Assembly: GCA_964539965.1 (NCBI GenBank)
Contig: CAZILI010000003.1
Coordinates: 1-31,111, forward strand
Source of the DNA: an uncultured Burkholderiales bacterium
GTDB lineage: Bacteria > Pseudomonadota > Gammaproteobacteria > Burkholderiales > JALYOK01
Direction of reading: 5' to 3'
Length of the DNA: 31,111 nucleotides
Shown: piece after piece, positions 4,215 through 25,553 of the stretch
Numbering within the stretch: position 1 is the first letter of the stretch
How the letters are laid out: each line of letters begins with the position of its first letter
Notes under the pieces: model-generated
Database searches by the model: none
Told to the model about the DNA's origin: nothing
What the model saw: the letters and a program-made list of their open reading frames with translations, nothing else
Made by a program: the position numbers and the translations under genes

Positions 4215-5087
4215 TTAGGGCTTGGCCCGTGTAGTCGCGTTGCCACGCTCGCAGGTAAGCCTGCCGCCGTCGTTACGAACTGGGCTTTGACAAGTTTCCG
4301 GATCGGCCAAGAACGTCGGCTGCCAGCGACCGACCGCGGTCATGCAGGTGGCGGATAGCACGTTGCCGTTCAATTCCAGCCCCCGACAGCCCTCGACCTT
4401 CGTGTCGACCGCCACCACCGACTCACCGGAGCAGCGCAGTTCTCCATTGACATTGGCGATACCGCCCCGACAGAGCCGATAGTTGTCCAGGTGGGTTGGC
4501 TGCCACATTCCGGCCGCATTCTTGCAAGTGCTACGTAGGGTAGTCGAGTTCACAAAACTATCACGGCAAGTTGCCAGATAAGAGCCGCGCGGCGGTGTAG
4601 TGCCTTGGTTGCATTGAAGCTGTCCTTCCACGTTGCTGATTTGCCCCAGGCACTGCGTTACGCCGACGAGTTCGGTCTTCCGCCATGTTCCACCCGCGTC
4701 CAAGCAGGTGCCATGCAAGGTATTTCCGCTTACGTAGCTATCACGGCAGCTTTGCGAGTAGGGGCCGAACGGCGCGGGGGCGCCTCGCTCGCAGACCAAC
4801 GTGCCGTTGGAGTTCGCGATGTCTCCGACGCACGCGCGAAAATCCTCCAGCCGGGTCTCGAGAAACTGGCCGCCGCGCGACTTGCAGTTACTTTCCAGCG
4901 TGCGGCCCACGACCCTGCTGTCCTTGCAGTTGAGCAAATAGCTGCCTTGAGGTGGGGATTCCGCCCAGGCCGGCGCGCCGGCGCTCCCTGTTAGCAAGGC
5001 TACGACGCCGACGACAACCCTTCCTTGCCGAGGGCGCTGCAGCGATTGACCAGGCGCCCGATGGGTGTGCTGATACATGCTCACCAT
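4215..5087 (-). CDS. Secreted cyanovirin-N-like (CVNH) repeat protein, putative lectin
   Basis: Hydrophobic signal (VVVGVVALLTGSAGAPAWA) followed by four ~58-aa repeats of GSY..xC.d..v.g.tL..xC....G.w..t.L.....C.g.i.N.nG.L.C. The start could be 5123, 5087 or 5078. Confidence 0.7.
   Translation of the reverse strand: MVSMYQHTHRAPGQSLQRPRQGRVVVGVVALLTGSAGAPAWAESPPQGSYLLNCKDSRVVGRTLESNCKSRGGQFLETRLEDFRACVGDIANSNGTLVCERGAPAPFGPYSQSCRDSYVSGNTLHGTCLDAGGTWRKTELVGVTQCLGQISNVEGQLQCNQGTTPPRGSYLATCRDSFVNSTTLRSTCKNAAGMWQPTHLDNYRLCRGGIANVNGELRCSGESVVAVDTKVEGCRGLELNGNVLSATCMTAVGRWQPTFLADPETCQSPVRNDGGRLTCERGNATTRAKP
4243..4955 (-). repeat. Four tandem protein-level CVNH-like repeats, each with 4 Cys
   Basis: R1 QGSYLLNC..SNGTLVC; R2 FGPYSQSC..VEGQLQC; R3 RGSYLATC..VNGELRC; R4 KVEGC..DGGRLTC. 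Confidence 0.8.
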
Positions 5088-5202
5088 CGTACTCCGCACC
5101 CCGCCGTCGAACAATTCGGGCACGGGTTCGACGTCGAGGCGGCCAGCGTTGTCAAGTTATGTCGCAGGGTGGTGCCAAGGCTAGAGCGACCGCGAGACTA
5201 TG

Positions 5203-5215
5203 CAAGTGATTGATT
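5203..5215 (-). promoter_or_regulatory. IHF-binding site consensus
   Basis: Minus strand reads AATCAA-TCAC-TTG, an exact match to WATCAA-N4-TTR. It lies 30 bp upstream of the sigma54 -24 box. Confidence 0.55.
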
Positions 5216-5244
5216 CGACGTGAGCACGAGCGGCCAGCGGCAGA

Positions 5245-5260
5245 TGGCACATCGCTTGCA
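5245..5260 (+). promoter_or_regulatory. sigma54 (RpoN) -24/-12 promoter
   Basis: TGGCAC-ATCGC-TTGCA matches TGGCAC-N5-TTGCW with exact GG-N10-GC spacing. It is intergenic, 75 bp before ATG 5336, with RBS GAGGAGG at 5322-5328. Confidence 0.8.
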
Positions 5261-5335
5261 CTGTAGTCGCCATCGGGTGGCGGCGCCGACCGAACGATGC
5301 GAAATAGGCGCAACCCATCATGAGGAGGCTCTTAC

Positions 5336-7657
5336 ATGACAACCAGCGAGTTCGAAGCGAGCGTTCTTGCCGAGGAGGAAGCAGTCGGCGAGAGGAGTGT
5401 CTTCACGACCCGGGAGGCTCCGTCTGTCGCACCCAAAGGCAATGACCGGCCAAGCGATTGGCCGGAGGGCGGTCCGATCGATCTGCGTGTCCATGACTTG
5501 CCACATCGCTCTTCGACTACCGAGTGGTGGTACCTCAATTGCCATGTCGCGACTCATGGCGGGAGGCAGCTCTCGTTGTTCGCAAGTTTCTTTCGCATTC
5601 TCCTCGATCAAGGCGCAGCGAGCAGCAAACCCGAGTATGCGCACGCGCTGAGTTGGGCGCTGGTCGACCCGAGCGCCGGGAAGTATTACGCCGATTCGCT
5701 GGTTGATCCATGCGCGCCGGCCGTCGCATTGGAAAAGCTCGAACGCGGCGAATGCGGTTTCGATCCGTTGTTGAAGCGCGCCGCCCAGGATATGTTGCGC
5801 GAGGGAAAGGTCCCGCACCCGGACCGCCTGATGGCAGCAGCCGCGCAGATTAGTCACACCAAGCTCGACTTGGACTTCGGCGGCTGCGGTTTACGTAAGC
5901 TAGAGAACGGCGCTTACGCTCTGAGTCTCACGCGCGATACGGCGGACGCTGCCTGCGAACTCGTGTTCCACCCACTGAGCGCGCCGATACGCCACGGCGA
6001 CGACGGCCTGGTGCGCGGAGCAGCGGGTGAGGGCATGTTCTACTACTTTATTCCGAAATGCCGAGTAGAGGGGCAGATCCGCGTTGAGGCCGAAGCACCG
6101 GTGAAGGTGGCCGGCAGCGGTTGGTACGACCACGAATTCGGTCAATCCCGCAAGGATCAAGAGCAAACGCAAGCTTCGTGGAATTGGATTTCGGTTCAGC
6201 TCGACAACGGCTATCAGATCTCCGCGTACGATCTCTTCGACGACGTTCGCGCGACCGGGCTCGGGCGCTGGGCGATCGTGGTAGATCCACAGGGTCGTCG
6301 CCATAAGAGCGTCAATTTTCGTCTCGAGCCGCTGACGCATTGGATCAGCACGCGTACGTTCGCCGAGTACCCGACTAGTTGGGCACTCGAAATCCCCGAA
6401 GTGGAACTGTCGCTCGAGGTCGAAGCGGCTTTCCCCGCGCAGGAGTTCGTGACCATCATTTCCGAGCCCGCCTTTTGGGAAGGTCGTGTCGGTGTGGTGG
6501 GCGAGATGAGGGGGCGGCCAGTGAAAGGCCTAGGCTTCGTCGAGCGCACGGGATTCGGCGCGCCGCGTGCGTTGCCCCAGCTCTTATCCGCAGCAGGCGA
6601 GCAGACTCGCCGCGCAGTCGGTGCGCTCCTGCCCACCAGGCCGACCGAGGCACAAGCGCGCCGTTTGATCGCCAGCGAGGCGCATCGTCATTACGTCGAA
6701 GACTTGGATCTGGACCAACACGCGCGCACCGTCCTCGCGCCGCTGCGAGAGATGATCGATCGCGGGGGAAAGGCGTGGCGCTCCTTCGCGATGCTCGCTT
6801 GCATCGACGCGGTCGGAGGCGACTCGCAACCCTTCGCCGACTGGGCGGCGTTGCCTGAGCTCGTGCATACCGGCTCGCTTATCGTCGACGACATTGAAGA
6901 CGGTTCGACACTGCGCCGCGGCGGCCCCGCATGCCACGTCATGCATGGCGAGGCGATTGCGATCAACGCCGGAAATGCCGCGTACTTTCTGGGCGAGGCG
7001 TTGCTGCGTGAGAGCCGGTTGGACGGCGAGATGAAACTACGCCTGTACGAGCTGTACTTCGAAGCGCTGCGCGCCGCTCACGCCGGTCAAGCCGCCGATA
7101 TCGACGGGCTGCGCGGCGCCATGCCCGCGGTGGTGGAAAGCGGCGCCGGCGACCTCCTCGAACGCCGCGTGTTGTGCGTGCACCGCCTGAAGTCCGCAGT
7201 GCCGGTTCGCTCCCTGGCGATGATGGGCGCGATCATCGGCAGCGGTACGCCCGAACAAGTCAGACGCATGGGTGACTACTTCGAGAAGGTCGGTCTCGCG
7301 TTCCAGATCATGGACGACGTTCTCAACCTGCGAGGCTTTCCTGAAGGGCTGAAGACCCGGGGAGAAGACATCTTCTGCGGAAAAGTGACCATGCCGATCG
7401 CCAAGGCCATGTCCCGGCTCGGACTACGACGTCGCCGCAAACTGTGGAAGGTTCTCTCAGCCAAGCCGCGCGACGCTGTCACCGTTTCCGGAGTCATCGA
7501 TGAACTGGAAGCTTGCGGTGCCATCTCCGCTTGCGTCGAACAAGCGCGGGAACTTCCGGAGCACGCCTGGCGTGCCTTGGATCCGTTGTTGAAGGACTCG
7601 CGGACCAAACTCATGCTGCGAGCATTCGGCTGGTATGTGTTGGAAAGAAACTACTGA
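5336..7657 (+). CDS. Fusion protein: N-terminal CrtC/AttH lipocalin-like domain + C-terminal trans-isoprenyl diphosphate synthase (GGPPS-like)
   Basis: N half: EWWYLN, MFYYFIP, GWYDHEFG, WNWISVQL, YPTSW, FWEG, GLGFVE. C half: GGKAWR, HTGSLIVDDIED (6887-6901), LRRG, GQAADI, FQIMDDVLNL (7313-7327), GEDIFCGK. Confidence 0.85.
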   Translation: MTTSEFEASVLAEEEAVGERSVFTTREAPSVAPKGNDRPSDWPEGGPIDLRVHDLPHRSSTTEWWYLNCHVATHGGRQLSLFASFFRILLDQGAASSKPEYAHALSWALVDPSAGKYYADSLVDPCAPAVALEKLERGECGFDPLLKRAAQDMLREGKVPHPDRLMAAAAQISHTKLDLDFGGCGLRKLENGAYALSLTRDTADAACELVFHPLSAPIRHGDDGLVRGAAGEGMFYYFIPKCRVEGQIRVEAEAPVKVAGSGWYDHEFGQSRKDQEQTQASWNWISVQLDNGYQISAYDLFDDVRATGLGRWAIVVDPQGRRHKSVNFRLEPLTHWISTRTFAEYPTSWALEIPEVELSLEVEAAFPAQEFVTIISEPAFWEGRVGVVGEMRGRPVKGLGFVERTGFGAPRALPQLLSAAGEQTRRAVGALLPTRPTEAQARRLIASEAHRHYVEDLDLDQHARTVLAPLREMIDRGGKAWRSFAMLACIDAVGGDSQPFADWAALPELVHTGSLIVDDIEDGSTLRRGGPACHVMHGEAIAINAGNAAYFLGEALLRESRLDGEMKLRLYELYFEALRAAHAGQAADIDGLRGAMPAVVESGAGDLLERRVLCVHRLKSAVPVRSLAMMGAIIGSGTPEQVRRMGDYFEKVGLAFQIMDDVLNLRGFPEGLKTRGEDIFCGKVTMPIAKAMSRLGLRRRRKLWKVLSAKPRDAVTVSGVIDELEACGAISACVEQARELPEHAWRALDPLLKDSRTKLMLRAFGWYVLERNY

Positions 7658-7667
7658 AGGAGGAGCT

Positions 7668-8195
7668 ATGTTGGACGGGATATGCCTACAAGACGTCATG
7701 CCGCATTCATCGCCAGTCTTTTTGCCCCAGACGAGAAGCAGGAAGCGCTCGGCCTCCGTGTTTCATGAATCGATCTGCCTGCACACGGAGTACGGTCCGC
7801 AATTCATCGACCTGACCGATCGCGTGAACGAGATCGTCGCGCAGTCCGGCATGTCCTACGGAATGGTGAACATACAAACGCGCCACACCACGACCGCGAT
7901 CGTCATCAACGAAAACGAGCCGCTGCTCCTGGAAGACATGAAGCTCATGCTCGATCGCTTGGCGCCGGCTAGCATGGACTACCAGCACAACAATTTTGCC
8001 ATTCGCACCGTCAACATGGTGCCGGGCGAAGTCGCCAACGGTCACGCGCACTGCCAAGCGTTGCACCTACGCGCCTCCGAGACCGTCAATTTGCTCGACG
8101 GTCGACTGCAACTGGGGCGCTGGCAGCGCATCTTTCTGCTCGAGCTTGACCACGCCAGGGAGAGAACCGTGTCCGTGCTGCTGCTTGGCCAATGA
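7668..8195 (+). CDS. yjbQ: YjbQ/UPF0047 family protein (secondary thiamine-phosphate synthase-like)
   Basis: HTTTAIVINENE, NGHAH and LQLGRWQRIFLLELD motifs. Start set at ATG 7668 after the AGGAGGAG RBS. Confidence 0.8.
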   Translation: MLDGICLQDVMPHSSPVFLPQTRSRKRSASVFHESICLHTEYGPQFIDLTDRVNEIVAQSGMSYGMVNIQTRHTTTAIVINENEPLLLEDMKLMLDRLAPASMDYQHNNFAIRTVNMVPGEVANGHAHCQALHLRASETVNLLDGRLQLGRWQRIFLLELDHARERTVSVLLLGQ

Positions 8196-8243
8196 CCGTG
8201 AGTGGCTTCGTCCGCCACGCCGTTCAACCCCGCCCGTAGCAAA

Positions 8244-9536
8244 ATGTACGCGCTATTCACCGCTATTCCTCTGATCGGGCATTTGAACCCGCTCGTGTAC
8301 CAAGCCGTGGAGTTGCAGCGCCGTGGCTGGCGGGTCGCGGTCGCCAGTACCGCCGAGGTCGGCGCATTCCTTGAGCGTGAACATCCGGCCGTCCCGTTCC
8401 TCGCGCTCGGAACGTCAGGCGGCGCGGCCGCCTATCTCAAGCGCGTGCAAGCGCTCGCCTCAAGCGACCGGGATTTTGCGCGCGGCGCGTTGCGCATCGT
8501 GCGAGCGCTGAAAGCGATGTGGCCTTGCATGTTTGACGGCTTGACCGACGCCGTGCGCCAAGACCGCCCCGACGTCATGGTCGTTGACTTGTTCTCTTCA
8601 GCTGGCATGTGCGTGGCCGAAGCAAACGCGATTCCGTTTGTCGTCAACAACGCCAACTTGCTGCCTTGCCTGCCTGTGCAAATGCTGCCTGCGGCGAATC
8701 ATGTTCCCACCTTGTTCTCCGGCCGCTCGATCCGGGCCGTCGGGCGCGCGCGAGCATGCCTGGCGCCGTTGCTTCGCCGACTTGCTGCCGGAGCAGCCGC
8801 ACTGACAGTGGGGCGAGATCTCAACGTCTTGCGGCGCAGTCGAGGTTTGCGCTCGATCGATATCCCCGAATTGCTCAACGGGCGCCCAATTCTGGTCGAC
8901 GGGGCATTCGGGCTCGAATACGAGCGTGCGCTTCCTGCCAACGTACACATGGTGGGCGCCATGCTGCCGGCGGAGCCGGCTCCTCTACCGGGAGATCTAG
9001 CGGCGTGGCTCGATCGGGGGCGGCCGGTGGTCTATGTCAACCTCGGCACCATGACGATCGCCACCCCCAAGCAGCTCGGCACGATGCGTGATGCGTTGAA
9101 GGAGGGACCGTTTCGCGTCCTATGGATAGTGGGAGAGTCTGATGCAGGGGCGCTGGCGCCCGCGGCTTCCGAGCGCTTCAAGATCCTACCTTGGGGCCCG
9201 TCTCCGCTTGCGGTGCTCTCGCATCCCAATGTACGCGCCTTTGTCTCTCACTGCGGCATCAATAGCGTGCATGAGGCGATCCAGGCGGGCACGCCGATCG
9301 TGGGCATCCCGATGTTTGCAGACCAACTCGACATGGGCGTGCGCCTGAGCGACGCGGGCATCGGCATTTGCCTCGACAAGGTCCGATTCACGGCATTCGA
9401 ACTGCGCCAGGCGCTGCAACAAGCAATGAGCGATTCGTCCTTCGCCGTAAATCTCGCGCGGGTGCGCGGATGTTTTCAGCGCGCCGGCGGGCCGGCGCGC
9501 GCGGCCGATCTTATCGTGCAAGCGGCAAGGAGCTGA
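8244..9536 (+). CDS. GT1-family (UGT/MGT-like) glycosyltransferase, paralog A
   Basis: N-terminal IGHLNP, PDVMVVD, and a PSPG-like box WGPSPLAVLSHPNVRAFVSHCGINSVHEAIQAGTPIVGIPMFADQ. Start 8244 was chosen by analogy to paralog B (MYALF); 8202 is possible. Confidence 0.9.
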   Translation: MYALFTAIPLIGHLNPLVYQAVELQRRGWRVAVASTAEVGAFLEREHPAVPFLALGTSGGAAAYLKRVQALASSDRDFARGALRIVRALKAMWPCMFDGLTDAVRQDRPDVMVVDLFSSAGMCVAEANAIPFVVNNANLLPCLPVQMLPAANHVPTLFSGRSIRAVGRARACLAPLLRRLAAGAAALTVGRDLNVLRRSRGLRSIDIPELLNGRPILVDGAFGLEYERALPANVHMVGAMLPAEPAPLPGDLAAWLDRGRPVVYVNLGTMTIATPKQLGTMRDALKEGPFRVLWIVGESDAGALAPAASERFKILPWGPSPLAVLSHPNVRAFVSHCGINSVHEAIQAGTPIVGIPMFADQLDMGVRLSDAGIGICLDKVRFTAFELRQALQQAMSDSSFAVNLARVRGCFQRAGGPARAADLIVQAARS

Positions 9537-9537
9537 C

Positions 9538-10893
9538 ATGTACGCGCTATTCGTTTCCCTTCCCTACGTCGGACATGTCAATCCACTGTTGCGACAAGCC
9601 CAGGCGCTGCAGCGGCGCGGTTGGCGTGTCGGCGTCGCCGGTATGCGGGAAATGGCAAGACACGTAGCGGCCGAAGCGCCGGATATCCCGTTTGTCGATC
9701 TGGGTGCGTTGGGCGACTTAACGCTCGAACTGCGCCGCCTGGAACTGACAGCCTCGATGGATCCCAACTACCTAACCGGCGCGTTGACCATCGCCAAGGG
9801 ACTCGTTTGGGTCGGGCCCCTCATGCTCGAGGGTTTGTGCCGGCACCTGGCGCAAGAGCGTCCCAACGTGGTCGTGACCGACATCTTCACCGCGGCCGGA
9901 GCTTGTGCCGCAGAGCGTTTCGGCATTCCGTTGGTCTTCAACAATCCGTCGTTGCTGACGGGGGTTCCGGTCAGCCTGCTGCCGCCTGCGCCGGACGTTC
10001 CGTTCACCCTCACGGCCCGTTCCATCCACGCAATGCGCTGGTGCGATCGCGCCATCGAGCCGTTGCGCCGAATCCTCAGCGACTGGGCAACCGCGGCCAC
10101 CGTGGGTCGCCATCTCAACGATCTGCGCAAGCGCGCGGGGCTGCCGGCGACGAATCTTACCGACCTCTTGCGCGGCAAGCCCATCCTCGTGAACGGATCG
10201 TTCGGCCTCGAGTACCGCCGAGCGCTGCCCGAAAATATCCATATGGTGGGACCTATGCTGGCGCAAGCCGCACCGGCTCTATCTCCCGAACTCGACCGCT
10301 GGCTGACACAAGGTCCGCCGGTGGTGTACGCCAACCTCGGCACCGTGGTGAAGCCTTCCACTTCACAACTCTCCCATTTGGCGGAGGCGCTCAGATCGAC
10401 CCGCAGGCGCGCACTCTGGGTACTCAAGCCCGACCTTGCCCCGGGACGGTGCATCAGCGAGACGGAAAGCCTGCGAGTGGTGCAATGGGTAACTTCGCCG
10501 CGCGCGATACTTGCCCATCCCAACGTCAAGGCCTTCGTTTCGCACTGCGGCATCAACAGCGTCTACGAGGCGCTCGATGCCGGCACACCGATCGCCGGGA
10601 TTCCGTTCTTCGCCGACCAGCGCGACATGGCAGTGCGCGTGGCGGATGCCGGGGTAGGTCTTTGGCTCGACAAGTCGCGCTTTACCGCAAAGACGCTGGC
10701 CGCACTTCTCGACCGGCTCGTCGACGGAGACGGGTTTGCCCAGCGCATCGCCCCGCTACGGGCGGCCTTCTCCGAGGCGGGCGGCGCTGAGCGAGCAGCC
10801 GACATCATCGAGCGATCAGCGAGCGAACAGCCCGCAGCCGGCTTGGCCGCCGGGCGCAGGGCACTACGCTCGGAGGCCGGCCAATGCGTGTAG
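9538..10893 (+). CDS. GT1-family (UGT/MGT-like) glycosyltransferase, paralog B
   Basis: VGHVNP, PNVVVTD and WVTSPRAILAHPNVKAFVSHCGINSVYEALDAGTPIAGIPFFADQ. It starts 1 nt after the paralog A stop. Confidence 0.9.
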   Translation: MYALFVSLPYVGHVNPLLRQAQALQRRGWRVGVAGMREMARHVAAEAPDIPFVDLGALGDLTLELRRLELTASMDPNYLTGALTIAKGLVWVGPLMLEGLCRHLAQERPNVVVTDIFTAAGACAAERFGIPLVFNNPSLLTGVPVSLLPPAPDVPFTLTARSIHAMRWCDRAIEPLRRILSDWATAATVGRHLNDLRKRAGLPATNLTDLLRGKPILVNGSFGLEYRRALPENIHMVGPMLAQAAPALSPELDRWLTQGPPVVYANLGTVVKPSTSQLSHLAEALRSTRRRALWVLKPDLAPGRCISETESLRVVQWVTSPRAILAHPNVKAFVSHCGINSVYEALDAGTPIAGIPFFADQRDMAVRVADAGVGLWLDKSRFTAKTLAALLDRLVDGDGFAQRIAPLRAAFSEAGGAERAADIIERSASEQPAAGLAAGRRALRSEAGQCV

Positions 10894-10969
10894 GCGCGCT
10901 TGCGTGCATTGCCGGCGATAGGAAACTGTGGCATGCTGTTATGCTTCGTGGCTGATTGGAGGAGTCGCC

Positions 10970-11596
10970 ATGTCTTCTGGTTCTAAGTCATCTCCTAACG
11001 TGGAGGCGCTCAACGCGAAGGCCGGCCAAGCTGCGCTGGCGGCCGGCGGGCTGCCCTCTGCTGAAGGTGTCAGCGTGGATAAGATCCGCGACCTGCTGTT
11101 CGGTAGCCAAATGCAAGATTACGACCGCCGATTCGGTGGGCTCGAGGAACGTTTCCAGCAGCGCATCAAGGAAGTCGAAAACGAGGCCACTCGGACGTAC
11201 ACCGGCCTGGAAGCGGCGACCAAGAAGCAGCTCGAATCGTTGGCGAGTCAGTTGCGCGAGGAAAAAGAGGTCCGATCCGACGCCGAGAAACAAATCGAGC
11301 GTGGGTTGCGTGAACAGGTGCAGGGGTTGGAGAAGCGGGTCGGGCAGCTGTCCGAGCATCTGGCGCAGGTGGAGCGTGACTTCGCCGACCGCCTTGCACA
11401 GGAGTCGCAGACCTTGCGCGATGAGATTCGGCGCCGGAACGACGAACTGCGCAACACAATCGAGCGCATGTTCGGTGAGTTGAGCAACGTCAAGACCGAC
11501 CGGAATTTGCTTGCGGGCCTGTTCGTCGAGATCGCCAAGTGCCTCAATCAAGACCTGAGTCCCAAGAGCGTCGGCAGAACTGAATTGGCCGCGTGA
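10970..11596 (+). CDS. Coiled-coil hypothetical protein associated with the OmpA/Rab module
   Basis: GGAGGAG RBS before ATG 10970; VDKIRDLLFG.QM.DY..RF followed by about 140 aa of heptad-like, charged helical sequence. Confidence 0.75.
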   Translation: MSSGSKSSPNVEALNAKAGQAALAAGGLPSAEGVSVDKIRDLLFGSQMQDYDRRFGGLEERFQQRIKEVENEATRTYTGLEAATKKQLESLASQLREEKEVRSDAEKQIERGLREQVQGLEKRVGQLSEHLAQVERDFADRLAQESQTLRDEIRRRNDELRNTIERMFGELSNVKTDRNLLAGLFVEIAKCLNQDLSPKSVGRTELAA

Positions 11597-11641
11597 ATAG
11601 GGAAACTCTGAAAGGGGGGCCTCGGCCGCGCCGTTCTCGAC

Positions 11642-13477
11642 ATGGTCTCCAGCGTTGCTTGGCCTGATTCCGAGTCCGAGCGCAAGAAAGGCGAGCAGCG
11701 ACTTGCCGCGCTGCTGATCGACCTCGCCCGAAATCTCAATCGTGATGTTGCCGCCGGCGTACCGAGTCAGGTAGTCGATCCGCGCCTAGAAGAACTGCGC
11801 CACATCGTCGTCGGGCCGGAGCGCTCCGGTCTCGAGCGGCTGCAACAGCGGCTCGACGATCCCGAACAACTCACCGCAACCGTCAGTCAGGTGCTTGCTC
11901 CGGCGATCGTGCAAGCGGCTGCGCGCGACGAACGCCTTGGCGAAGCGCTGTCCCCCATGGTCGAGACTGCTACTCAGCTCTCGATCAAGAAAGATCCGCG
12001 CACTCTCGTCAACATCTTGTATCCGCTGATCGGGCCCGCGATCCGCAAGTCGCTCAGCGAGACCCTCGAGCAGTCGATGAAATCGCTCAACGAAATGCTG
12101 CGCCAGAGCTTTTCGTGGCGCGGACTGCGTTGGCGGCTGGAGGCATATCGAACCGGGACGACGTTCGCTCAAGTGGTGCTGCGGCACACACTGGTCTACC
12201 GCGTGGATCACGTGTTTCTCATTCACCGCCATACCGGACTGCTGATCGAGCACGTTACCGCCGATCCCCTAACCGAGAAAGATCCGCAGCTCGTCTCCGG
12301 TATGCTGACCGCCATTCAGGATTTCGTGCGTGATTCGTTCTCTGCGCCTAGCGATGCCGGGCTGGACACCTTGCGATTCAGCGAATGGCTATTGTGGTGC
12401 GTGGAAAGCCCGCACGCGTTCCTGGTCGCGGTGATACGCGGCAATCCGCCGCAGGAGTTGCGCGAGTGGTTGCGCGACACATTGATTCAGATCCATGCCC
12501 ACAAACATCAAGCGTTGGAGCGGTACGAGGGAGATCGCAACGGCTTTCTCGACATACACGACCTACTCGAGCGTTGCCTGCGCGTGCAAGAGCGGCCCGA
12601 GCCGGCCAAGACTTCAACGGTTTTCTGGTTGTTGGTCTTGGTCTTACCGCTGGCGCTGCTGGTGGCGGGGGGGTATGCGCTGTACGAGCGCAGCCAAGAC
12701 CAGCGGCGCTTTGCCGGCTACGTGAATAGACTACGCGCTGAACCAGGAATAGTCGTGACTGCAACGGAAATGCGCGACAACCGTTGGCACGTGAGCGGTC
12801 TGCGCGATCCGCTCGCGGTCGATCCCAAGGACCTGATAGTCGACAGTGGGCTAACGGCCGAGCGGGTGATCGGCCATTGGGCGCCATACCAGGGACTCGA
12901 CCCGGAATTGGTGTTGAAGCGCCTGAAAGCGAGCCTCGAAGTCCTGCCGTCGGTCACCCTGTCGATAGAGAAAGGGGCGATACGCGCTCGTGGACTCGCC
13001 CCGCACTACTGGTTGGAGAAGGCGCGCGCGGTGGCGAGCGTTCTTCCGCCAGGATCGCCACAACTCGACCTTACGTCGGTTAAGGATGTCGACAAGACGG
13101 CGCTGGAGGGCGTACGCGAGTCGATCGAATCCTATGTGATTTTCTTCGACAAGGATGCTGCGACACCGACAGCTGGACAGGAGGCGCAAATCAACGCGTT
13201 GGCCGCGCAGTTGCGCGAATTGGCGAGCGTCTCGCGCAAGTTGCGACTAGGTGCTCGTGTGACCGTGATCGGTCATGCCGACGCTACCGGAAAAGAGACT
13301 ACCAATCTTGCCCTGAGCATCGCGCGCGCCGAGGTGGTGCGCTCACTGCTCAAGCGTGACGGGGTCGACCCCGACTTGTTGGCGGCGCGCGGAGCGGGTC
13401 GTCTGGAGCCGGTGGTATCCCCTGGTGAAGCCGATCGCAACCGGCGGGTGTCGTTGACCGTGACCTTCTCCGAGTAA
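11642..13477 (+). CDS. Single-pass membrane protein: helical + longin-like cytoplasmic region, TM helix, periplasmic domain, C-terminal OmpA-C peptidoglycan-binding domain
   Basis: TM segment VFWLLVLVLPLALLVAGGYALY (12620-12685). The C-terminus VIGHADATG..TNLALSIARAEVV...NRRV is an OmpA-C signature. The N-terminal part has VFLIHRHTGLLI...LVSGMLTAIQDF. Confidence 0.8.
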   Translation: MVSSVAWPDSESERKKGEQRLAALLIDLARNLNRDVAAGVPSQVVDPRLEELRHIVVGPERSGLERLQQRLDDPEQLTATVSQVLAPAIVQAAARDERLGEALSPMVETATQLSIKKDPRTLVNILYPLIGPAIRKSLSETLEQSMKSLNEMLRQSFSWRGLRWRLEAYRTGTTFAQVVLRHTLVYRVDHVFLIHRHTGLLIEHVTADPLTEKDPQLVSGMLTAIQDFVRDSFSAPSDAGLDTLRFSEWLLWCVESPHAFLVAVIRGNPPQELREWLRDTLIQIHAHKHQALERYEGDRNGFLDIHDLLERCLRVQERPEPAKTSTVFWLLVLVLPLALLVAGGYALYERSQDQRRFAGYVNRLRAEPGIVVTATEMRDNRWHVSGLRDPLAVDPKDLIVDSGLTAERVIGHWAPYQGLDPELVLKRLKASLEVLPSVTLSIEKGAIRARGLAPHYWLEKARAVASVLPPGSPQLDLTSVKDVDKTALEGVRESIESYVIFFDKDAATPTAGQEAQINALAAQLRELASVSRKLRLGARVTVIGHADATGKETTNLALSIARAEVVRSLLKRDGVDPDLLAARGAGRLEPVVSPGEADRNRRVSLTVTFSE

Positions 13478-13489
13478 GGCGCCCGGGAC

Positions 13490-13984
13490 ATGCTGCAGAA
13501 GAAGATCTGCATGCTGGGCGCGTTTGCGGTCGGCAAGACGAGCCTGGTTCGGCGCTACGTCGACAGCATCTTCTCCGATGCCTACCTTACCACCGTGGGA
13601 GTCAAGATCGACAAGAAATCCCTCAACGTTCAGGGTCGCAGCGTGGACTTGATCGTGTGGGACATCGCCGGGGAGGACGACATCTCGGCGGTGCGTATGA
13701 GCTATGTGCGCGGCGCCTCCGGCTACCTGCTGGTGGTGGACGGCACCCGGCCGGAGACGTTGGACGTGGCGGATTCGTTGCGCAAACGCGTTGCTTCCGA
13801 AATCGGCAGCGTTCCGTTCGTGGCGTTGCTCAACAAGCAGGATCTGCGTGAGCGCTGGGCGATTTCTCAACGTGCTGTGCAGGAGCGCGAACAAGACGGC
13901 TGGCTGATCCAGTTCACCAGCGCGAAGACCGGCGCGGGAGTGGAGTCGGCGTTCCAAGCGCTCGCAGATCGCGTCGCCGGGTAG
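13490..13984 (+). CDS. Ras/Rab-like small GTPase (stand-alone, 164 aa)
   Basis: G1 GAFAVGKTS, G2 YLTTVG, G3 WDIAGE, G4 NKQD, G5 TSAKTG. There is no C-terminal lipidation tail. Confidence 0.92.
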   Translation: MLQKKICMLGAFAVGKTSLVRRYVDSIFSDAYLTTVGVKIDKKSLNVQGRSVDLIVWDIAGEDDISAVRMSYVRGASGYLLVVDGTRPETLDVADSLRKRVASEIGSVPFVALLNKQDLRERWAISQRAVQEREQDGWLIQFTSAKTGAGVESAFQALADRVAG

Positions 13985-14027
13985 CCGCTGAGTCGCGCTT
14001 TCGTTTCCGTGCCGAGCACTCAAACAC

Positions 14028-15293
14028 ATGTCCCGCCTAACCGCAGTTGACAGCCTTTCGGCGCGCACGGTGACGGAGCCGGAATGGCCGGCTTCCGTCA
14101 CACAATTTCTCCTATCGAACCTGCGTGCGCGACGCGCGGTCGCTTTTCTCCGAGTCGATGCTTCGCTGCTTGTGGCCGATGCGGGTGGTGAACTGGCGAA
14201 CTATGGGTTGCAGGGGGTGCGCATCGGCGTATCGGCGTGCGAACAGGCGGTGTTCTTGGCCGGTTTGCTGCCCGCGCCCGAGTTGCCTTTCTGCCTCGAA
14301 TCGGTGCAGATGCCTTCGGGGCGTTCCGCCGATCTGCACTTGGTCGCCGACTCCGCCGACACTTGGGTGTTGTTGTTGGATGTGAGCGTCGAGCGGGACG
14401 AGGCGTGGCGCTTCCAGCAGCGGGCATACGAGATGACCTTGCTGAGTGAGCGCGAAGGACAGCTGATTCAGCGCCTCGAAAGCGCAAACCGCTCGTTGCA
14501 GCGTACGCAACTCGCTCTGGAGCAGTCGCGCGAGGCGTTGTTACGCGCCAACCGCCGCCTGGAGCAGGAACTAACCGATGCGGCTAACTACGTGCGCTCC
14601 ATCTTGCCGCCGCCGCTGTCGACGCCGTTCGAAGTGGATTGGCGGTTCGTGCCGTCCACCGAGCTAGGTGGCGACTCGTTTGGCTATCACTGGATCGACG
14701 AACATCACTTCGCGTTGTATATCCTGGATGTTTGCGGGCACGGCGTCGGCTCGGCGCTGCTGTCGGTGGCCGCCAGCAACGCGCTGCGCTCCCAAGCCTT
14801 GCCGAGCGCGGATTTCCGTGAGCCGGACGAAGTCCTCACGGCGTTGAACCAGGCGTTTCTGATGGAGAAGAACAACGATCTGTACTTGACCATTTGGTAC
14901 GGGGTCTACCATCGCGGCTCCAGGCAACTCGAGTATGCCTGTGCCGGCCATCCGCCGGCGTTGCTGCTGCGCGGCCCTGCGCACGAAGCGGCCCGAGTGG
15001 ACGAGTTGCGCGCCAGGGGCACGGTGCTCGGCATTACCTCAGGCGTGAGATACCGCAGCCAAACCACCACGGTGCCGCCTGACACCCGCCTGTTTTTGCT
15101 TACGGACGGCGCCTTCGAAGTGCGTAGACCCGACGGCACAGTATTGCCCTATGCCGAATTCCTCGACCATCTGGTGCAGCCGATCGCCGATGGTACTTCG
15201 GAGCTGGACCGGCTGTTGACCTTCATGGGCGAGACTCACGGACCGGGGCCGCTCGAGGACGACTTTTCCGCGGTCAAGTTCCGCTTCCCTTAG
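14028..15293 (+). CDS. SpoIIE/RsbU-like PP2C Ser/Thr phosphatase with N-terminal PAS-like domain and coiled-coil linker
   Basis: ELGGDSF, ILDVCGHG, CAGHPP, LTDGAFE and EDDFS motifs are intact. The N-terminal ~120-aa domain ends in WVLLLDVS and is followed by a heptad helix. Confidence 0.88.
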   Translation: MSRLTAVDSLSARTVTEPEWPASVTQFLLSNLRARRAVAFLRVDASLLVADAGGELANYGLQGVRIGVSACEQAVFLAGLLPAPELPFCLESVQMPSGRSADLHLVADSADTWVLLLDVSVERDEAWRFQQRAYEMTLLSEREGQLIQRLESANRSLQRTQLALEQSREALLRANRRLEQELTDAANYVRSILPPPLSTPFEVDWRFVPSTELGGDSFGYHWIDEHHFALYILDVCGHGVGSALLSVAASNALRSQALPSADFREPDEVLTALNQAFLMEKNNDLYLTIWYGVYHRGSRQLEYACAGHPPALLLRGPAHEAARVDELRARGTVLGITSGVRYRSQTTTVPPDTRLFLLTDGAFEVRRPDGTVLPYAEFLDHLVQPIADGTSELDRLLTFMGETHGPGPLEDDFSAVKFRFP

Positions 15294-15321
15294 GCTATCA
15301 AGAACCCGTCCGACCGTTCGG

Positions 15322-16758
15322 CTACTCTTCGTCGTCGGTTCGATCGACCTCGCGCTGCCGAACCAGTCGCTTATTGAGTGCGTGGCGCGAGATACCCAAT
15401 AGGCTGGCCGCCACGCCTTGGTTGCCGTCGGCGCGCCGCAGCGCCTCTTGAATTAGCGCCTGCTCGGTCTGCTTCAAGGTAGGAAGCTGCTCCGGGAACG
15501 ACATTACCGCCGGATCCGACTCGTCCTCTTCCGTCACTTCGTCTTCGGCCTGCTGGCCGAGAATCGCTTCTTTGAAGCTCTGCAGCGAGAGGATGGTGCC
15601 GCGATGCCGCGCAACGGCATCGAATACCAACGCCTCCAGCTCTCTGATGTTGCCCGGGAAACCATATGTCTTGAGCAGCTGAAACAATGCCGGCGGAACA
15701 CTCGGCTCCGGCTTCGCCAGCGCCCGCGCCGCCTTTTCGACAAAATGATCTACTAGCAGCGGCAGATCTCCCGGTCGCGCCCGCAGCGGCGGCAAGTGGA
15801 AGTGATGCGTGCGCAGACGGTAATACAGGTCTTTGCGGAATTTTCCCTCGCTTACCGCGCGAAGGACGTCGCTATTGGTGGCGACGATGACCCTCGCGCG
15901 TGACTGGCGCGGCTTGTCTGCCCCCAGCGGATAGTAGGTGCCGTCCTGCAGCAGACGCAGGAGCTTGACCTGGGAGGCGATCGATAGGTCGCCGATCTCG
16001 TCCAGGAACAGCGTTCCTTCGGCGGCGCTGGTGACCAGTCCCTCTCTCGGTCGATCGGCGCCGGTGTAAGAACCTTTGGTATGGCCGAACAGTGTGTCCG
16101 AGAACATCGTATCGTCCAGCCCCGCCACGTTGACCGCGACCAGTTCGCCGCGCCGGCCGGACAGTCGATGTATCGCCTTCGCGATGAGTTCCTTGCCGGT
16201 GCCGCTCTCGCCGGTGATAAGTGCAGGCTGCGGCGAGGGCGCGATCGCCTCCAGATAGCGAAAGATCGCCAGCATCGTTTTGCTCTGCGTGACGATCTCG
16301 GATATCAGTCTGCTTTCGCGCGGGCTATCGGTGAGCAGGCTGTCTTTCAGAGAGAGGACCTCGGCGCGCAGGGCGAGGATCTCCAGGGCGCGGTTCACCG
16401 AGGAAATCAGTCGCTCCGCGTCCAGCGGCTGCATGAGGCGGTCGATCGCGCCGGTCCGCGAGGTCAGCGGTCCGCCGCCCGGACCATCTTCACCGCCGAC
16501 CAGGATGATCGCCACCTCGGGATAATGTAGATGGATGCGCTCGAGCAGCTCGACACCTTCCGAGTCCGCGCCGCGCGTTGCGAAGACGAGCACGGCACCG
16601 TCGTGCTTGGCAAGCGTTGCCAGCACCTCGTCGCGCTCGTCCAGTTGTAAGAGATTGGTGACGCCCGCGCTGCGCAGCACCTCGGCCGCGTCGTCCAGCA
16701 AGATCCCTTCGCCTGCCACCAGCAGGATCGGCAGTGTGCTGATCTCGTTGAGTTTCAT
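15322..16758 (-). CDS. sigma54-dependent activator (bEBP): degenerate receiver + AAA+ + Fis-type HTH
   Basis: Walker A GESGTGKE, LFGHTKGSYTGA, Walker B LFLDEI, FRKDLYYRL, FPGNIREL and a C-terminal HTH GNQGVAASLLGISR. Start set at MKLNE (16758) rather than the ORF-track 16959. Confidence 0.9.
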   Translation of the reverse strand: MKLNEISTLPILLVAGEGILLDDAAEVLRSAGVTNLLQLDERDEVLATLAKHDGAVLVFATRGADSEGVELLERIHLHYPEVAIILVGGEDGPGGGPLTSRTGAIDRLMQPLDAERLISSVNRALEILALRAEVLSLKDSLLTDSPRESRLISEIVTQSKTMLAIFRYLEAIAPSPQPALITGESGTGKELIAKAIHRLSGRRGELVAVNVAGLDDTMFSDTLFGHTKGSYTGADRPREGLVTSAAEGTLFLDEIGDLSIASQVKLLRLLQDGTYYPLGADKPRQSRARVIVATNSDVLRAVSEGKFRKDLYYRLRTHHFHLPPLRARPGDLPLLVDHFVEKAARALAKPEPSVPPALFQLLKTYGFPGNIRELEALVFDAVARHRGTILSLQSFKEAILGQQAEDEVTEEDESDPAVMSFPEQLPTLKQTEQALIQEALRRADGNQGVAASLLGISRHALNKRLVRQREVDRTDDEE

Positions 16759-19491: not shown

Positions 19492-20343
19492 CTACTGAGC
19501 GTCGATGCGAAACCGGTACAACTTCTCGCCGGTTTGGTATGCGATCTGACGAGCGATCGGCGAAGGCAACTGGGCGAGCCATTTGCGATGCCAAACGGCA
19601 AGGGCAGGCACGTCCGGCCAGCGCGAAGGCGTCCAGGTGTCGCTGCCGACGACGAATCGGTCGGGGAAGCGCAGAAAAAGCGCGCGCCAGCTCGGCGCCA
19701 AGGCGCCTTCCGGATCGGCGACGTCGTAGCGGTACGACAGCTCGACCCACAGGTTCGGAAACCGCTCCAGCCACCGCTCGATCGTCTCGATCGGCGTGGT
19801 GATGCCGGCGTGCGCCCACAGCACGCGCGCCTTCGCGTCATGGGCAAACAATCTCTCGATCGCGGCGGCATCCGAGTGCGCGTGCAGGATGAGGTCGTTC
19901 GCGACCGCCAACTCCACCACCCGGCGAATGACGTCGGTTTCGGCTTCCTTGCCGTTGAGGTGGAACTCGCCGATGCCGCGATAGCTTCCGCGCTTCAGTT
20001 CTGCTTGCAAGTAGTCCGGCAACTCCGGATCGCGCCACCATGTCGCGCGGTCGGCATACCAGGTCTCGAGGCTCGTGGTCTTGCGGTAGACCCTGAGTTC
20101 GGCGATGAACCGTGACCGATCGGCCGCCACCAGCTTGAGCGTGCCGTCGTTCGGCGTGCTCGAGAGTAAGGCCTTCTTGATGCCGGCCTGGTCGAGAAGC
20201 TTGAGTGCAGTCGCGACCGGGTACTCATCCCAGGCGTTGCCGTTGTAGTGAATATGGCCGTCGAACAAAGGCAGTTCGTCGCCGCCGAGCGCGGCGCCGG
20301 CAGACAGAAGCAAGCTGAGTAACAGGGATCGGAGTGTGTTCAT
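19492..20343 (-). CDS. Secreted amidohydrolase-family protein
   Basis: Signal peptide, LFDGHIHY (HxH), GIGEFHL, LHAH, WAHAG and FVVGSDTW. Its start overlaps the CCP stop by 4 nt. Confidence 0.82.
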   Translation of the reverse strand: MNTLRSLLLSLLLSAGAALGGDELPLFDGHIHYNGNAWDEYPVATALKLLDQAGIKKALLSSTPNDGTLKLVAADRSRFIAELRVYRKTTSLETWYADRATWWRDPELPDYLQAELKRGSYRGIGEFHLNGKEAETDVIRRVVELAVANDLILHAHSDAAAIERLFAHDAKARVLWAHAGITTPIETIERWLERFPNLWVELSYRYDVADPEGALAPSWRALFLRFPDRFVVGSDTWTPSRWPDVPALAVWHRKWLAQLPSPIARQIAYQTGEKLYRFRIDAQ

Positions 20344-21476
20344 GGTGGGGGCAAGGGATAATCCTTGAAAGCGGCGCGTGCTTGGTCGGCCAGCTGCTGC
20401 ACGTTGTCGCCGGTGAGGGAGCGTAAGAATTCTACTAGCGCTCGCTTGTCCTCTTCGGAGAGAGCCCGCAGCTCCGGAGGCAAGACCTTGCTCGCATCGG
20501 TTGCTGCGTTAGGCCGATGAGATTCGACGACCGCTTCCAGAGTCGCCAGCGAGCCGTCGTGCATGTAGGGCGCAGTCAGCGCGACGTTGCGCAGGCTCGG
20601 AGTTCGAAACGCGTTCTTGTCGGCGACCCGTCCCGTCACTTCGAATCGCCCCGCGTCGCGGCTTATGGGCTCTGAGACGCTCGCCAGCGCGGCGGCATCC
20701 ACTTCGACGTATACGTCGGGAGCGAGCTGCACCTTGTGCTTTTCGGCCGGCGTCGCGCTCTGTCCGACATCGTGGAAGCGATGGTCGGTGAACAAGCCAC
20801 TAGCCTCGCCGTAGCGGTGGCAGCTGGGGCAGCCCAACGCGTTGAAAACCGAAAATCCCCGTTGCGCCTCGCTCGACAGCGCCTGCGGCTCACGTTGCAA
20901 GAACCAGCGATCGAAACGCGAGTTGGCTGCCAGCAACGTCCGCTCGTAGCTTGCCAGCGCTTGGCCGATAGTTTCCCTGCTCGGGCCGCGTCCGTCGAAT
21001 GCCGCTTCGAACAGCCCGCGATAGTCAGCGAGCGACTTGAGCCTGCCCGCGACTTGTTCGACCGATGCATTCGCCATTTCATTGCGCGCCAACAGGGGCC
21101 GCCAGACTTGATTCTCCAGGCTCGACTCGCCGCCGTCGCGCAGCAACGCAGGCTCAAACGCGACGTTGAGCAGGCTCGGCGCGTTGCGGCGCACGCTTCT
21201 GCCCTCGAAGCCGATCGGCGTCGCCATGTCGTTTACCGCAAAAGCCTGCTCGGGCACATGGCACATGGCGCAGGACATGGTGCCGTTCGGCGACAAGCGT
21301 CGATCCATGAAGAGCTTGCGTCCCAACACGATCTTGGCCGGCGTGAGAGCATTGTCTGCCGGCGTGGTCAACGCCGGCAGACCGAGGGGGACCGTCACCT
21401 GAGCCGCTGCCGGTCCCAGCCCCGCTAGGCAAATCACCACACTGACGCGAGCGGCGAGGGCAGTCGCTGCGGTCAA
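20340..21476 (-). CDS. Di-heme cytochrome c peroxidase / MauG-like protein
   Basis: LGRKLFMD..LS, CAMCH, RNAPSLLN, CPSCH and FRTPSLRNVALTAPYMHDG; located in the mto cluster. Confidence 0.88.
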   Translation of the reverse strand: MTAATALAARVSVVICLAGLGPAAAQVTVPLGLPALTTPADNALTPAKIVLGRKLFMDRRLSPNGTMSCAMCHVPEQAFAVNDMATPIGFEGRSVRRNAPSLLNVAFEPALLRDGGESSLENQVWRPLLARNEMANASVEQVAGRLKSLADYRGLFEAAFDGRGPSRETIGQALASYERTLLAANSRFDRWFLQREPQALSSEAQRGFSVFNALGCPSCHRYGEASGLFTDHRFHDVGQSATPAEKHKVQLAPDVYVEVDAAALASVSEPISRDAGRFEVTGRVADKNAFRTPSLRNVALTAPYMHDGSLATLEAVVESHRPNAATDASKVLPPELRALSEEDKRALVEFLRSLTGDNVQQLADQARAAFKDYPLPPP

Positions 21477-21482
21477 TCGGCC

Positions 21483-22139: not shown

Positions 22140-22155
22140 GCGACTCTCCCGTTCT

Positions 22156-23502: not shown

Positions 23503-23539
23503 TTCTTCCTCCTGGGGACGGTAATGTTCCGGAGGGGGG

Positions 23540-23569
23540 ATTCTAGGCTAGCCCTACGCCAACCGGCAA
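23540..23569 (-). promoter_or_regulatory. Putative sigma70-type promoter of the mto operon
   Basis: Minus strand reads TTGCCG-N18-TAGAAT, followed by the AGGAGG RBS before mtoX. Confidence 0.4.
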
Positions 23570-23676
23570 ACGGCCGGGCCTCAGGTGCGACCTATCGGGT
23601 ACCATCACGCGCCATGAACTCCGGCGCGGTACAGAGACTTTGGTCCATGATGCGGTCCGCACGCGTTCGTTGCGTC

Positions 23677-25548: not shown

Positions 25549-25553
25549 CGGCG

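Follow-up and report, generated by a model that had tools for sequence, protein, structure and literature searches.

Several enzymes of the AttH/CrtC family act on isoprenoid chains: the carotenoid hydratase CrtC, kievitone hydratase and the archaeal hydroxy-GDGT (glycerol dialkyl glycerol tetraether) synthase Hgs each hydrate an isoprene C=C so that a tertiary alcohol results, kievitone hydratase at a prenyl C=C and Hgs, an AttH-family protein, at the double bonds of isoprenoid lipids (bioRxiv 10.1101/2025.10.20.683597). In CrtC the reaction is cofactor-independent, with Asp protonation and cation-pi stabilisation by Trp; in the Rubrivivax gelatinosus enzyme (RgCrtC), D268, W110, W283 and W285 are essential for activity and W110 has a cation-stabilising role (PMC12402844). 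CrtC hydrates more than 20 head-to-tail C12-C20 terpenes, including farnesol, geranylgeraniol and geranyllinalool, at the terminal prenyl unit only (PMC12402844). Fusion of a chain-building prenyltransferase to an enzyme that uses its product has been described as limited to fungi, where the partner is a cyclase. Here we describe a bacterial gene that joins an AttH/CrtC-type hydratase domain to a type III-like isoprenyl diphosphate synthase (IDS). It lies at 5336..7657 on the forward strand of a 31,111-nucleotide stretch (the window) of contig CAZILI010000003.1 from an uncultured Burkholderiales bacterium (GCA_964539965.1), and its assignment rests on the open reading frame (ORF), Pfam and an AlphaFold2 (AF2) model. 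The explanation we favour, and hold to be about evenly balanced between right and wrong, is that the product carries out two reactions and is the central enzyme of a small gene cluster for a hydroxy-prenyl or terpenoid glycoside, the chemistry being deduced from its relatives.

The original prediction, made from the letters of the window, had described a continuous 773-aa ORF joining a CrtC/AttH-like domain to an IDS, and we found exactly that: the ORF begins with ATG, ends in TGA and is preceded by a Shine-Dalgarno sequence, GAGGAGG, read at 5322..5328, 7 nt 5' of the start codon. Residues 1-35 (5336..5440) are predicted to be disordered (predicted local distance difference test score, pLDDT, below 50) and are poorly conserved, being variable and gappy in an alignment of 36 homologues that are 48-63% identical to the window protein (mean column identity 60%). 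The AttH/CrtC double beta-barrel then occupies aa ~37-406 (5444..6553) and the all alpha-helical IDS domain aa ~410-773 (6563..7654), both placed by Pfam, matches to PDB sequences and Foldseek, and the latter also by the model. The original prediction had proposed a domain search for CrtC, Lipocalin_9 and polyprenyl_synt, and all three scored above their curated thresholds: CrtC at aa 170-270 (67.9 bits, cut-off 22.5), Lipocalin_9 at aa 277-406 (83 bits, cut-off 26.2) and polyprenyl_synt (PF00348) at aa 466-718 (147.6 bits, cut-off 27). The only NCBIfam models matched were those of isoprenyl diphosphate synthases, all far under their equivalog cut-offs, and an identity as IdsA or as an encapsulin cargo prenyltransferase was rejected on these scores. 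The AF2 model of the full-length protein has a mean pLDDT of 87.8 and a predicted template modelling (TM) score of 0.86, with disorder limited to the N-terminal segment and an all-beta N half. In this model the final strand of the barrel runs to residue 404 and the synthase begins with a helix at 413, leaving a connector of about 8 residues, and the two halves are predicted to form one rigid body. Because the connector is short and the whole-chain model is confident as a single body, the arrangement suggests that the prenyl chain would be passed directly from synthase to hydratase.

The fusion is widespread. A homologue search over 5.8 billion proteins (E <= 1e-10) returned 630 matches, the best 120 of which are 48-64% identical to the window protein, about 740-800 aa long and all full-length with the same three Pfam domains; these 120 come from Spirosoma, Fibrella, Telluribacter, Calothrix, Merismopedia, Cyanosarcina, Chloroflexota, Chitinophagales and many metagenomes. 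When one representative genome per species was scanned for 185,579 species, a relative of the fusion was found to be encoded in 492 of them, spread over at least five phyla, with Myxococcota contributing most, then Bacteroidota, Cyanobacteria, Acidobacteriota and Verrucomicrobia; identity to the window protein was at most 55% in every one of these species-representative relatives. An exhaustive search with the N domain alone (E < 1e-30) gave 161 representative clusters; fragments aside, their members measure roughly 720-810 aa and begin with the barrel, some being longer, and the AttH clade nearest to the window's barrel exists, as judged by these searches, essentially only in fused form. An assembly artefact or chance ORF is ruled out by the hundreds of full-length homologues and by invariant residues in both halves; the original prediction had named absence of the fusion from other genomes as the sign of an artefact, and its presence in the 492 genomes, with fusions for all of the best 120 homologues, shows the opposite. 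Public annotation calls family members only 'polyprenyl synthetase family protein'. We found no published study of an AttH-synthase fusion in the open-access literature and bioRxiv, although a paywalled report remains possible, and no characterised member of the family in the open-access literature searched. As a separate observation, in one metagenomic relative of 888 aa (P0157) a PX domain precedes the AttH and synthase parts; this domain type is typical of eukaryotes, so that the family may extend into them.

The synthase half has the residues of a working enzyme. Its first aspartate-rich motif (FARM), HTGSLIVDDIED (aa 511-522; 6866..6901; motif search and alignments), contains D518, D519 and D522 and has G513 and S514 at the -5 and -4 positions, and the second (SARM), FQIMDDVLNL (aa 656-665; 7301..7330; motif search and the 36-homologue alignment), is of the DDxxN type; both were located where the original prediction had read them, as were DHE (aa 265-267) and WEG (aa 381-383) in the barrel. 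All 36 aligned sequences share the FARM aspartates and SARM residues D660, D661 and N664, the small residues G513 and S514, a set comprising K479, R482, H511, R527, R528, K619, F656, Q657 and K673, and Y550, F551 and H582, while K683 is kept in at least 90%. The 2-residue insertion that plant and bacterial enzymes typically carry in this motif is missing from the FARM, as a gap in the alignment to plant geranylgeranyl diphosphate synthase (GGPPS) shows. The synthase half belongs to the trans-isoprenyl diphosphate synthase family and by its motifs is catalytically complete, and we infer that it would be an active trans-isoprenyl diphosphate synthase.

The relatives that come out on top among PDB sequences depend on the region compared, in a ranking of matches: plant type II GGPPS leads for the whole domain (top of 88 synthase matches at E <= 1e-10) and type III enzymes lead for aa 495-600. 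For the latter segment alone the best matches were the prenyltransferase domain of Penicillium copalyl diphosphate synthase, a fungal IDS-like synthase, human GGPPS and yeast GGPPS, together with the prenyltransferase domains of astellifadiene, sesterbrasiliatriene, variediene and stellatatriene synthases (PDB entries among these matches: 9wyv, 9wyx, 9e2h, 9wz3 and 7wij), and the segment and its best matches have I-N-x-x-N-x-x-Y-F and H-x-G-Q in common. By structure, Foldseek matched the domain to Pyrococcus GGPPS (1wy0) with a target-normalised TM-score of 0.86. In alignments to human and fungal enzymes, the helix INAGNAAYF (6962..6988), type III GGPPS-like and with Y550 and F551 as the putative floor of the chain pocket, pairs with 'INSANYVYF' of human GGPPS and 'FNSGNYVYF' of a fungal prenyltransferase, and 'VYF' and 'H-Q-GQ' of the human enzyme fall opposite Y550, F551 and H582. 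We take these three residues to be the counterparts of Y107, F108 and H139 of yeast GGPPS, in which the Tyr-Phe pair and the His are the pocket-floor residues that limit the product to C20. Since the chain-length region is built like that of type III GGPPS, C20 is the most likely product, with C15-C25 within range. The likeness to type III GGPPS put forward in the original prediction is thus borne out by the -5/-4 residues of the FARM, the DDxxN motif and the aa 495-600 matches, but not by the domain as a whole, which scores best against plant type II GGPPS.

For the barrel, the nearest solved sequences are AttH NE1406 (2ich, E = 7.5e-18) and 7a0q (E = 7.5e-8), and Foldseek gave target-normalised TM-scores of 0.84 to AttH (2ich) and 0.76 to kievitone hydratase (7a0t). 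To place the residues known from CrtC, we aligned the barrel domains of three fusion subfamilies with a genuine CrtC from the Roseobacter litoralis photosynthesis plasmid, where crtC-crtD lies beside crtE-crtF, and deduced the local RgCrtC sequence from published mutagenesis primers (W-S-G-H264-A-Y266-L-D268-S-N-E and H239-R-W241-G-P-I). In this alignment the proton donor D268 of RgCrtC corresponds to D265 of the window protein, within W263-Y-D265-H-E267-F (6122..6139); the cation-stabilising W283 and W285 correspond to W282 and W284 of the W282-N-W284 motif (6179..6187), and W110, with the same role, to W65 of the W64-W65 pair (5525..5530), both motifs being invariant in this alignment as well as among the 36 homologues. 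The essential Y266 corresponds to W263, a Trp as in AttH and kievitone hydratase. D265, a putative proton donor, together with W263, E267, W65, W282 and W284, is invariant among the 36 homologues, and some 60 other positions of the N domain do not vary between phyla, with overall identity at ~50%; in the Streptomyces fusion subfamily a Glu replaces D265. A helical insertion at aa 124-165 (DP...DPLL.RA...G.VP.PDR; 5705..5830), with helices at 127-136 and 144-155 in the AF2 model, is kept in the three divergent fusion subfamilies, including those of Streptomyces and Tolypothrix, gapped in CrtC and not aligned to 2ich. The N half, made of two orthogonal lipocalin-like barrels, belongs to the AttH/CrtC fold family and keeps the catalytic set (the Asp and three Trp) of its isoprene hydratases, and water addition is its predicted reaction.

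This differs from the original prediction, which had called the protein a candidate terpenoid synthase that hydrates or cyclises its chain. Neither a class I or class II cyclase domain nor a DxDD, DDxxD or NSE motif was found in the N half with Pfam and NCBIfam, and the AlphaFold and Foldseek comparison that had been proposed for the N domain recovered the AttH and kievitone hydratase fold. All three characterised AttH-family enzymes with prenyl substrates are hydratases, and the sole ring-forming enzyme reported with an AttH-like fold, CghA, is a Diels-Alderase; we found no terpene cyclase of this fold in the open-access literature. The idea that a C20 chain is made and hydrated on the same polypeptide remains reasonable from the type III-like region, and it is the cyclisation part that is left without support.

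The strongest clue to the purpose of the hydroxyl is the glycosyltransferase operon context, which was not part of the original prediction. Directly 3' of the fusion's TGA and ahead of the next start codon is AGGAGGAG, followed by a YjbQ/UPF0047 gene (7668..8195, forward strand; Pfam UPF0047; TIGR00149 at 102 bits against a cut-off of 67.75), whose likely ATG is at 7668 within a longest ORF from 7635. Two genes for GT1-family glycosyltransferases come next on the same strand, GT1a (8202..9536; UDPGT/macrolide-glycosyltransferase-like, Pfam UDPGT 1.3e-31, NCBIfam MGT 1e-36 but under cut-off) and GT1b (9538..10893; Pfam UDPGT 5.1e-32), which are paralogues with 47% identity by blastp. The gaps are 10 nt from fusion to YjbQ, 6 nt from YjbQ to GT1a and 1 nt from GT1a to GT1b. 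YjbQ is annotated as 'secondary thiamine-phosphate synthase', and because thiamine-phosphate synthase chemistry displaces diphosphate, a role in handling (removing or replacing) the prenyl diphosphate is conceivable, if speculative.

We compared 93 fusion loci. Longest-ORF clustering of neighbours worked well for low-GC loci, but in high-GC Myxococcota it gave shadow ORFs and missed the fusion in 15 loci, so partners were identified by tblastn with reference partners together with precomputed gene calls. A GT1 or a GT28-like enzyme resembling MGDG (monogalactosyldiacylglycerol) synthase was present in the flank of 26 of the 93 loci, within 5 kb in 25 of these 26, and the glycosyltransferase-flanked loci span Cyanobacteria, Bacteroidota, Verrucomicrobia, Acidobacteriota and Myxococcota; at least one tailoring partner was found in 29 of the 93. 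All five loci of the window's own lineage carry a glycosyltransferase, in varied company: besides the window, these are L001 (fusion, YjbQ, cytochrome P450, LMF1-like protein, FkbM methyltransferase, GT28-like), L088 (fusion, flavin adenine dinucleotide (FAD) oxidase, methyltransferase, GT28-like), L089 (methyltransferase, fusion, YjbQ, FAD oxidase, GT1) and L090 (fusion, GT1, GT28-like). The YjbQ gene is translationally coupled to the fusion and confined to this lineage, in 3 of the 93 loci (window 7635-8195, L001 12327-12878 and L089 12062-12508). The GT28-like partner is 56-61% identical among L001 (a metagenome-assembled genome of the window's lineage), Calothrix and a Spirosoma, and we class it by sequence as a lipid glycosyltransferase, given its likeness to the MGDG synthase of plants and the diglucosyl-diacylglycerol synthase of bacteria; the Calothrix locus consists of the fusion and this enzyme with nothing more. 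A membrane protein of ~770 aa from the LMF1 (lipase maturation factor) family adjoins the fusion at L004 (12322-14631), L001 (14263-16641) and 8 more loci, in Spirosoma, Chitinophaga, Verrucomicrobia and others, and has no NCBIfam match. In five Chitinophagales loci (L023, L035, L037, L075 and L080) the fusion adjoins mevalonate-pathway genes, those for 3-hydroxy-3-methylglutaryl-CoA (HMG-CoA) reductase and a GYDIA-family GHMP kinase.

In some relatives the glycosyltransferase is part of the same chain. A 1509-aa protein on a plasmid of Tolypothrix sp. PCC 7601 (NZ_CP064882; L086 7646-12175) runs Sulfotransferase-GT1-AttH-IDS in a single polypeptide and is encoded between genes for a DevB-like membrane fusion protein and a DevC/ABC ATPase, that is, a DevBCA-type exporter, a type known for glycolipids. 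Proteins of ~1500 aa with the same sulfotransferase-GT1-AttH-IDS layout were found three more times (P0175, P0182 and P0279), and two further relatives are single GT1-AttH-IDS polypeptides (P0189 and P0206). These larger fusions tie glycosylation to the same pathway as the AttH-synthase pair.

The scheme we favour starts from what was observed directly, namely the domains, invariant residues, folds, gene order, co-occurrence and larger fusions. The C-terminal synthase, with its full set of motifs, would condense isopentenyl diphosphate (IPP) with an allylic diphosphate and stop most likely at C20. In the cofactor-free barrel, D265 would then protonate a trisubstituted C=C, most likely that of the terminal unit, where CrtC also acts, W65, W282 and W284 would stabilise the resulting tertiary carbocation, and a water quench would give a tertiary alcohol; the residues are in place and the chemistry is taken by homology. 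GT1a and GT1b, as their position in the operon suggests, would glycosylate the tertiary hydroxyl, or else the C1 hydroxyl after loss of the diphosphate, a loss or replacement for which YjbQ may, speculatively, be responsible. Methylation, oxidation or sulfation, depending on the lineage, would accompany the glycosylation. Several points weigh against this scheme. Chain length, hydration site and glycosylation site are all read from homologues, and hydration could come before or after loss of the diphosphate. The whole synthase domain scores better against plant type II GGPPS (E = 1e-26) than against yeast GGPPS (6.6e-16). Of the four residues initially listed as essential in CrtC, two are not kept, H239 being Y236 and W241 being F238 in the window protein, and AttH, which is without known function, also keeps the Asp/Trp set, so that conservation of the set is no proof of hydratase activity. 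No phosphatase for removal of the diphosphate is evident. Finally, 19 of the 93 loci (labelled Myxococcota or related) have a ~207-aa protein directly 3' of the fusion and never a glycosyltransferase (for example L091 11363-11986, L093 11367-11996 and L065 12398-13012), often with a 373-aa protein 5' of the fusion, and for this reason glycosylation is not universal to the family; these Myxococcota partners (207, 373 and 640 aa) have no Pfam or NCBIfam match.

One alternative is a barrel that does no chemistry at all and serves in lipid binding, product release, membrane targeting or regulation, the protein then making a prenyl diphosphate only. Lipocalin-like barrels often just bind hydrophobic ligands, AttH 2ich has no demonstrated activity, the mevalonate-pathway neighbours in Chitinophagales would suit an enzyme of general precursor supply, and most Myxococcota loci have no tailoring genes. 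We nevertheless consider a non-catalytic barrel unlikely, given that the whole CrtC set (the Asp and three Trp) and the ~60 further positions are invariant, beyond the needs of ligand binding, and that the flanking or fused glycosyltransferases need an acceptor hydroxyl. That same need for a hydroxyl, which hydration supplies directly, speaks against a cyclising barrel, one that would start by protonation like a class II terpene cyclase (or combine cyclisation with hydration), sit rigidly on the type III-like prenyltransferase of the same chain and let an internal C=C capture the cation. In favour of such a cyclase, the CrtC mechanism has been compared in the literature with that of squalene-hopene cyclase, with the same logic of an Asp and aromatic residues, the fold hosts the ring-forming CghA, the conserved insertion at aa 124-165 that CrtC lacks could reshape the cavity, and the order of a tailoring domain followed by a type III-like prenyltransferase parallels the fungal enzymes. 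With no cyclase domain or DxDD, DDxxD or NSE motif in the N half, no terpene cyclase of AttH-like fold found in the literature and only hydratases among the three characterised prenyl-substrate members, cyclisation is in our estimation improbable.

A carotenoid pathway would make the gene a CrtE-CrtC fusion, in which the synthase supplies geranylgeranyl diphosphate (GGPP) for C40 carotenoids, the barrel hydrates the acyclic end of the finished carotenoid as a 1,2-hydratase and the 1-hydroxyl so formed receives its sugar from the GT1 enzymes, in the style of rhodopin glucoside or of the carotenoid glycosides of myxobacteria. The barrel does exceed the Pfam CrtC threshold, and the R. litoralis photosynthesis cluster brings together the same two enzyme families. 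In carotenoid pathways it is an established sequence that a tertiary alcohol is formed by hydration and then glycosylated, and several of the host phyla make 1'-hydroxy carotenoid glycosides. However, not one of 85 loci probed has a crtI, crtB or crtD homologue within 10 kb of the fusion, and R. litoralis CrtI, CrtB, CrtD, CrtF and CrtA used as probes on these loci gave no match. The recurring partners (LMF1-like protein, FkbM methyltransferase, P450/FAD oxidase, MGDG-synthase-like glycosyltransferase and sulfotransferase) are non-carotenoid enzymes, the barrel is nearer to AttH by the 2ich match than to CrtC (19% identity to the R. litoralis protein) and has lost H239 and W241, and rigidly joining the enzymes from the two ends of a pathway, when several steps lie between them, offers no obvious gain by channelling. 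Together these observations make a carotenoid role improbable. Very improbable, finally, is a synthase domain that does not elongate chains and acts as an IDS-like terpene synthase of the kind derived from IDS in fungi and insects. Fungal IDS-like 'terpene synthases' (the 6v0k and 7s0x series) are among the best PDB matches to the FARM region, but such matches cover only aa ~508-590, and the IPP-binding and catalytic residues (K479, R482, H511, R527/R528, K619, the FQ pair, K673 and K683) are invariant or nearly so.

If the bifunctional hydratase-synthase reading is true, the family would be a widespread bacterial counterpart of the fungal chain-builder fusions with a different partner chemistry, the cofactor-free, regioselective hydration of an unactivated C=C. 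Such hydration is sought after for the production of tertiary terpene alcohols (PMC12402844). The fusion and its lipid or natural-product glycosyltransferases, with or without FkbM methyltransferase, P450/FAD oxidase, LMF1-like protein and sulfotransferase, would form a modular cluster of which we found no published description in the open-access literature, and its occurrence in Cyanobacteria, Bacteroidota, Acidobacteriota, Verrucomicrobia and Myxococcota would point to unrecognised bacterial hydroxy-prenyl glycosides or glycolipids. The protein would also offer a natural system for the hand-over of a hydrophobic chain between two active sites on one rigid body, and cultivable carriers exist in Spirosoma, Fibrella, Telluribacter and Calothrix sp. 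336/3. Should the barrel prove, against our expectation, to be a cyclase, it would be the first bacterial counterpart of the fungal chimeric terpene synthases, with an unrelated fold, feeding a new class of bacterial terpenoid glycosides.

Around the operon, a search for promoters and terminators over 4900-15500 gave nothing above shuffled controls. On the reverse strand, divergent from the fusion across 212 nt, is a gene (4215-5123) for a 302-aa Cys-rich protein with two CVNH (cyanovirin-N homology) stretches. After GT1b, separated by gaps of 34, 45, 12 and 43 nt, the forward strand continues over 10928-15293 with genes for an apolipoprotein-like protein of 222 aa, an OmpA-domain protein of 611 aa, a Ras-family small GTPase of 164 aa and a SpoIIE/PP2C phosphatase. 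Farther away, 20340-23502 on the reverse strand holds a gene for SBP56, a selenium-binding-protein-like product (22156-23502), then SCO1/SenC (21483-22139) and then a MauG-like di-haem cytochrome c peroxidase (20340-21476), an order that resembles the one reported for bacterial methanethiol oxidase (mtoX) loci. At 23314-26385 two ORFs overlap on opposite strands, a forward one of 744 aa with a weak PQQ_2 match only and a reverse one of 646 aa with a PEP_mutase match at aa 11-152 only.

Compared with described systems, the barrel shares with CrtC (R. gelatinosus and Thiocapsa roseopersicina; PF07143) the Pfam family, the double-barrel fold and the set of one Asp and three Trp. It differs in having Tyr and Phe in place of H239 and W241, a 40-residue helical insertion, a fused synthase and no crtI, crtB or crtD nearby, and it is without the membrane anchor with which CrtC is described to begin. 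The loss of H239 and W241 and the lack of carotenoid genes around it place the fusion outside CrtC proper. With AttH (2ich) and kievitone hydratase (7a0q/7a0t) it has the W-x-D-[HR]-[EQ]-[WF], WxW, QE, WEG and vE motifs in common, but these two occur unfused, the annotation of AttH-type proteins is a generic 'predicted secreted hydrolase', and the substrate of kievitone hydratase is a prenylated isoflavonoid. Hgs offers a parallel in gene arrangement, since its gene overlaps that of the substrate-making enzyme (bioRxiv 10.1101/2025.10.20.683597). Unlike the fusion, Hgs is archaeal and unfused, acts on membrane-spanning tetraethers and has as its partner a radical SAM (S-adenosylmethionine) desaturase rather than a chain-building synthase.

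The synthase half resembles the type III GGPPS of yeast and human in the absence of a FARM insertion, the small -5/-4 residues, DDxxN, INxxNxxYF and H-x-GQ, and departs from them in being bacterial and fused and in the higher score of the full domain against plant type II GGPPS. A class II terpene cyclase is a different kind of protein, as the window protein has neither beta-gamma alpha-barrel domains nor DxDD, and its N-terminal fold is a beta-barrel. In layout the protein matches the fungal chimeric terpene synthases (fusicoccadiene, variediene and astellifadiene synthases), which likewise have two modules with a C-terminal type III GGPPS-like prenyltransferase and both build and modify a chain on one polypeptide. 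In place of their alpha-helical class I cyclase, the bacterial protein has an N-terminal beta-barrel of hydratase type, joined on by a connector of ~8 residues; in the fungal enzymes the linkers are long and flexible and the prenyltransferase cores assemble as hexamers or octamers. Lacking a class I cyclase domain, the fusion is not a fungal-type chimeric terpene synthase, and the likeness is one of layout only. The AttH-synthase fusion presents known parts in a widespread, uncharacterised and functionally suggestive combination.

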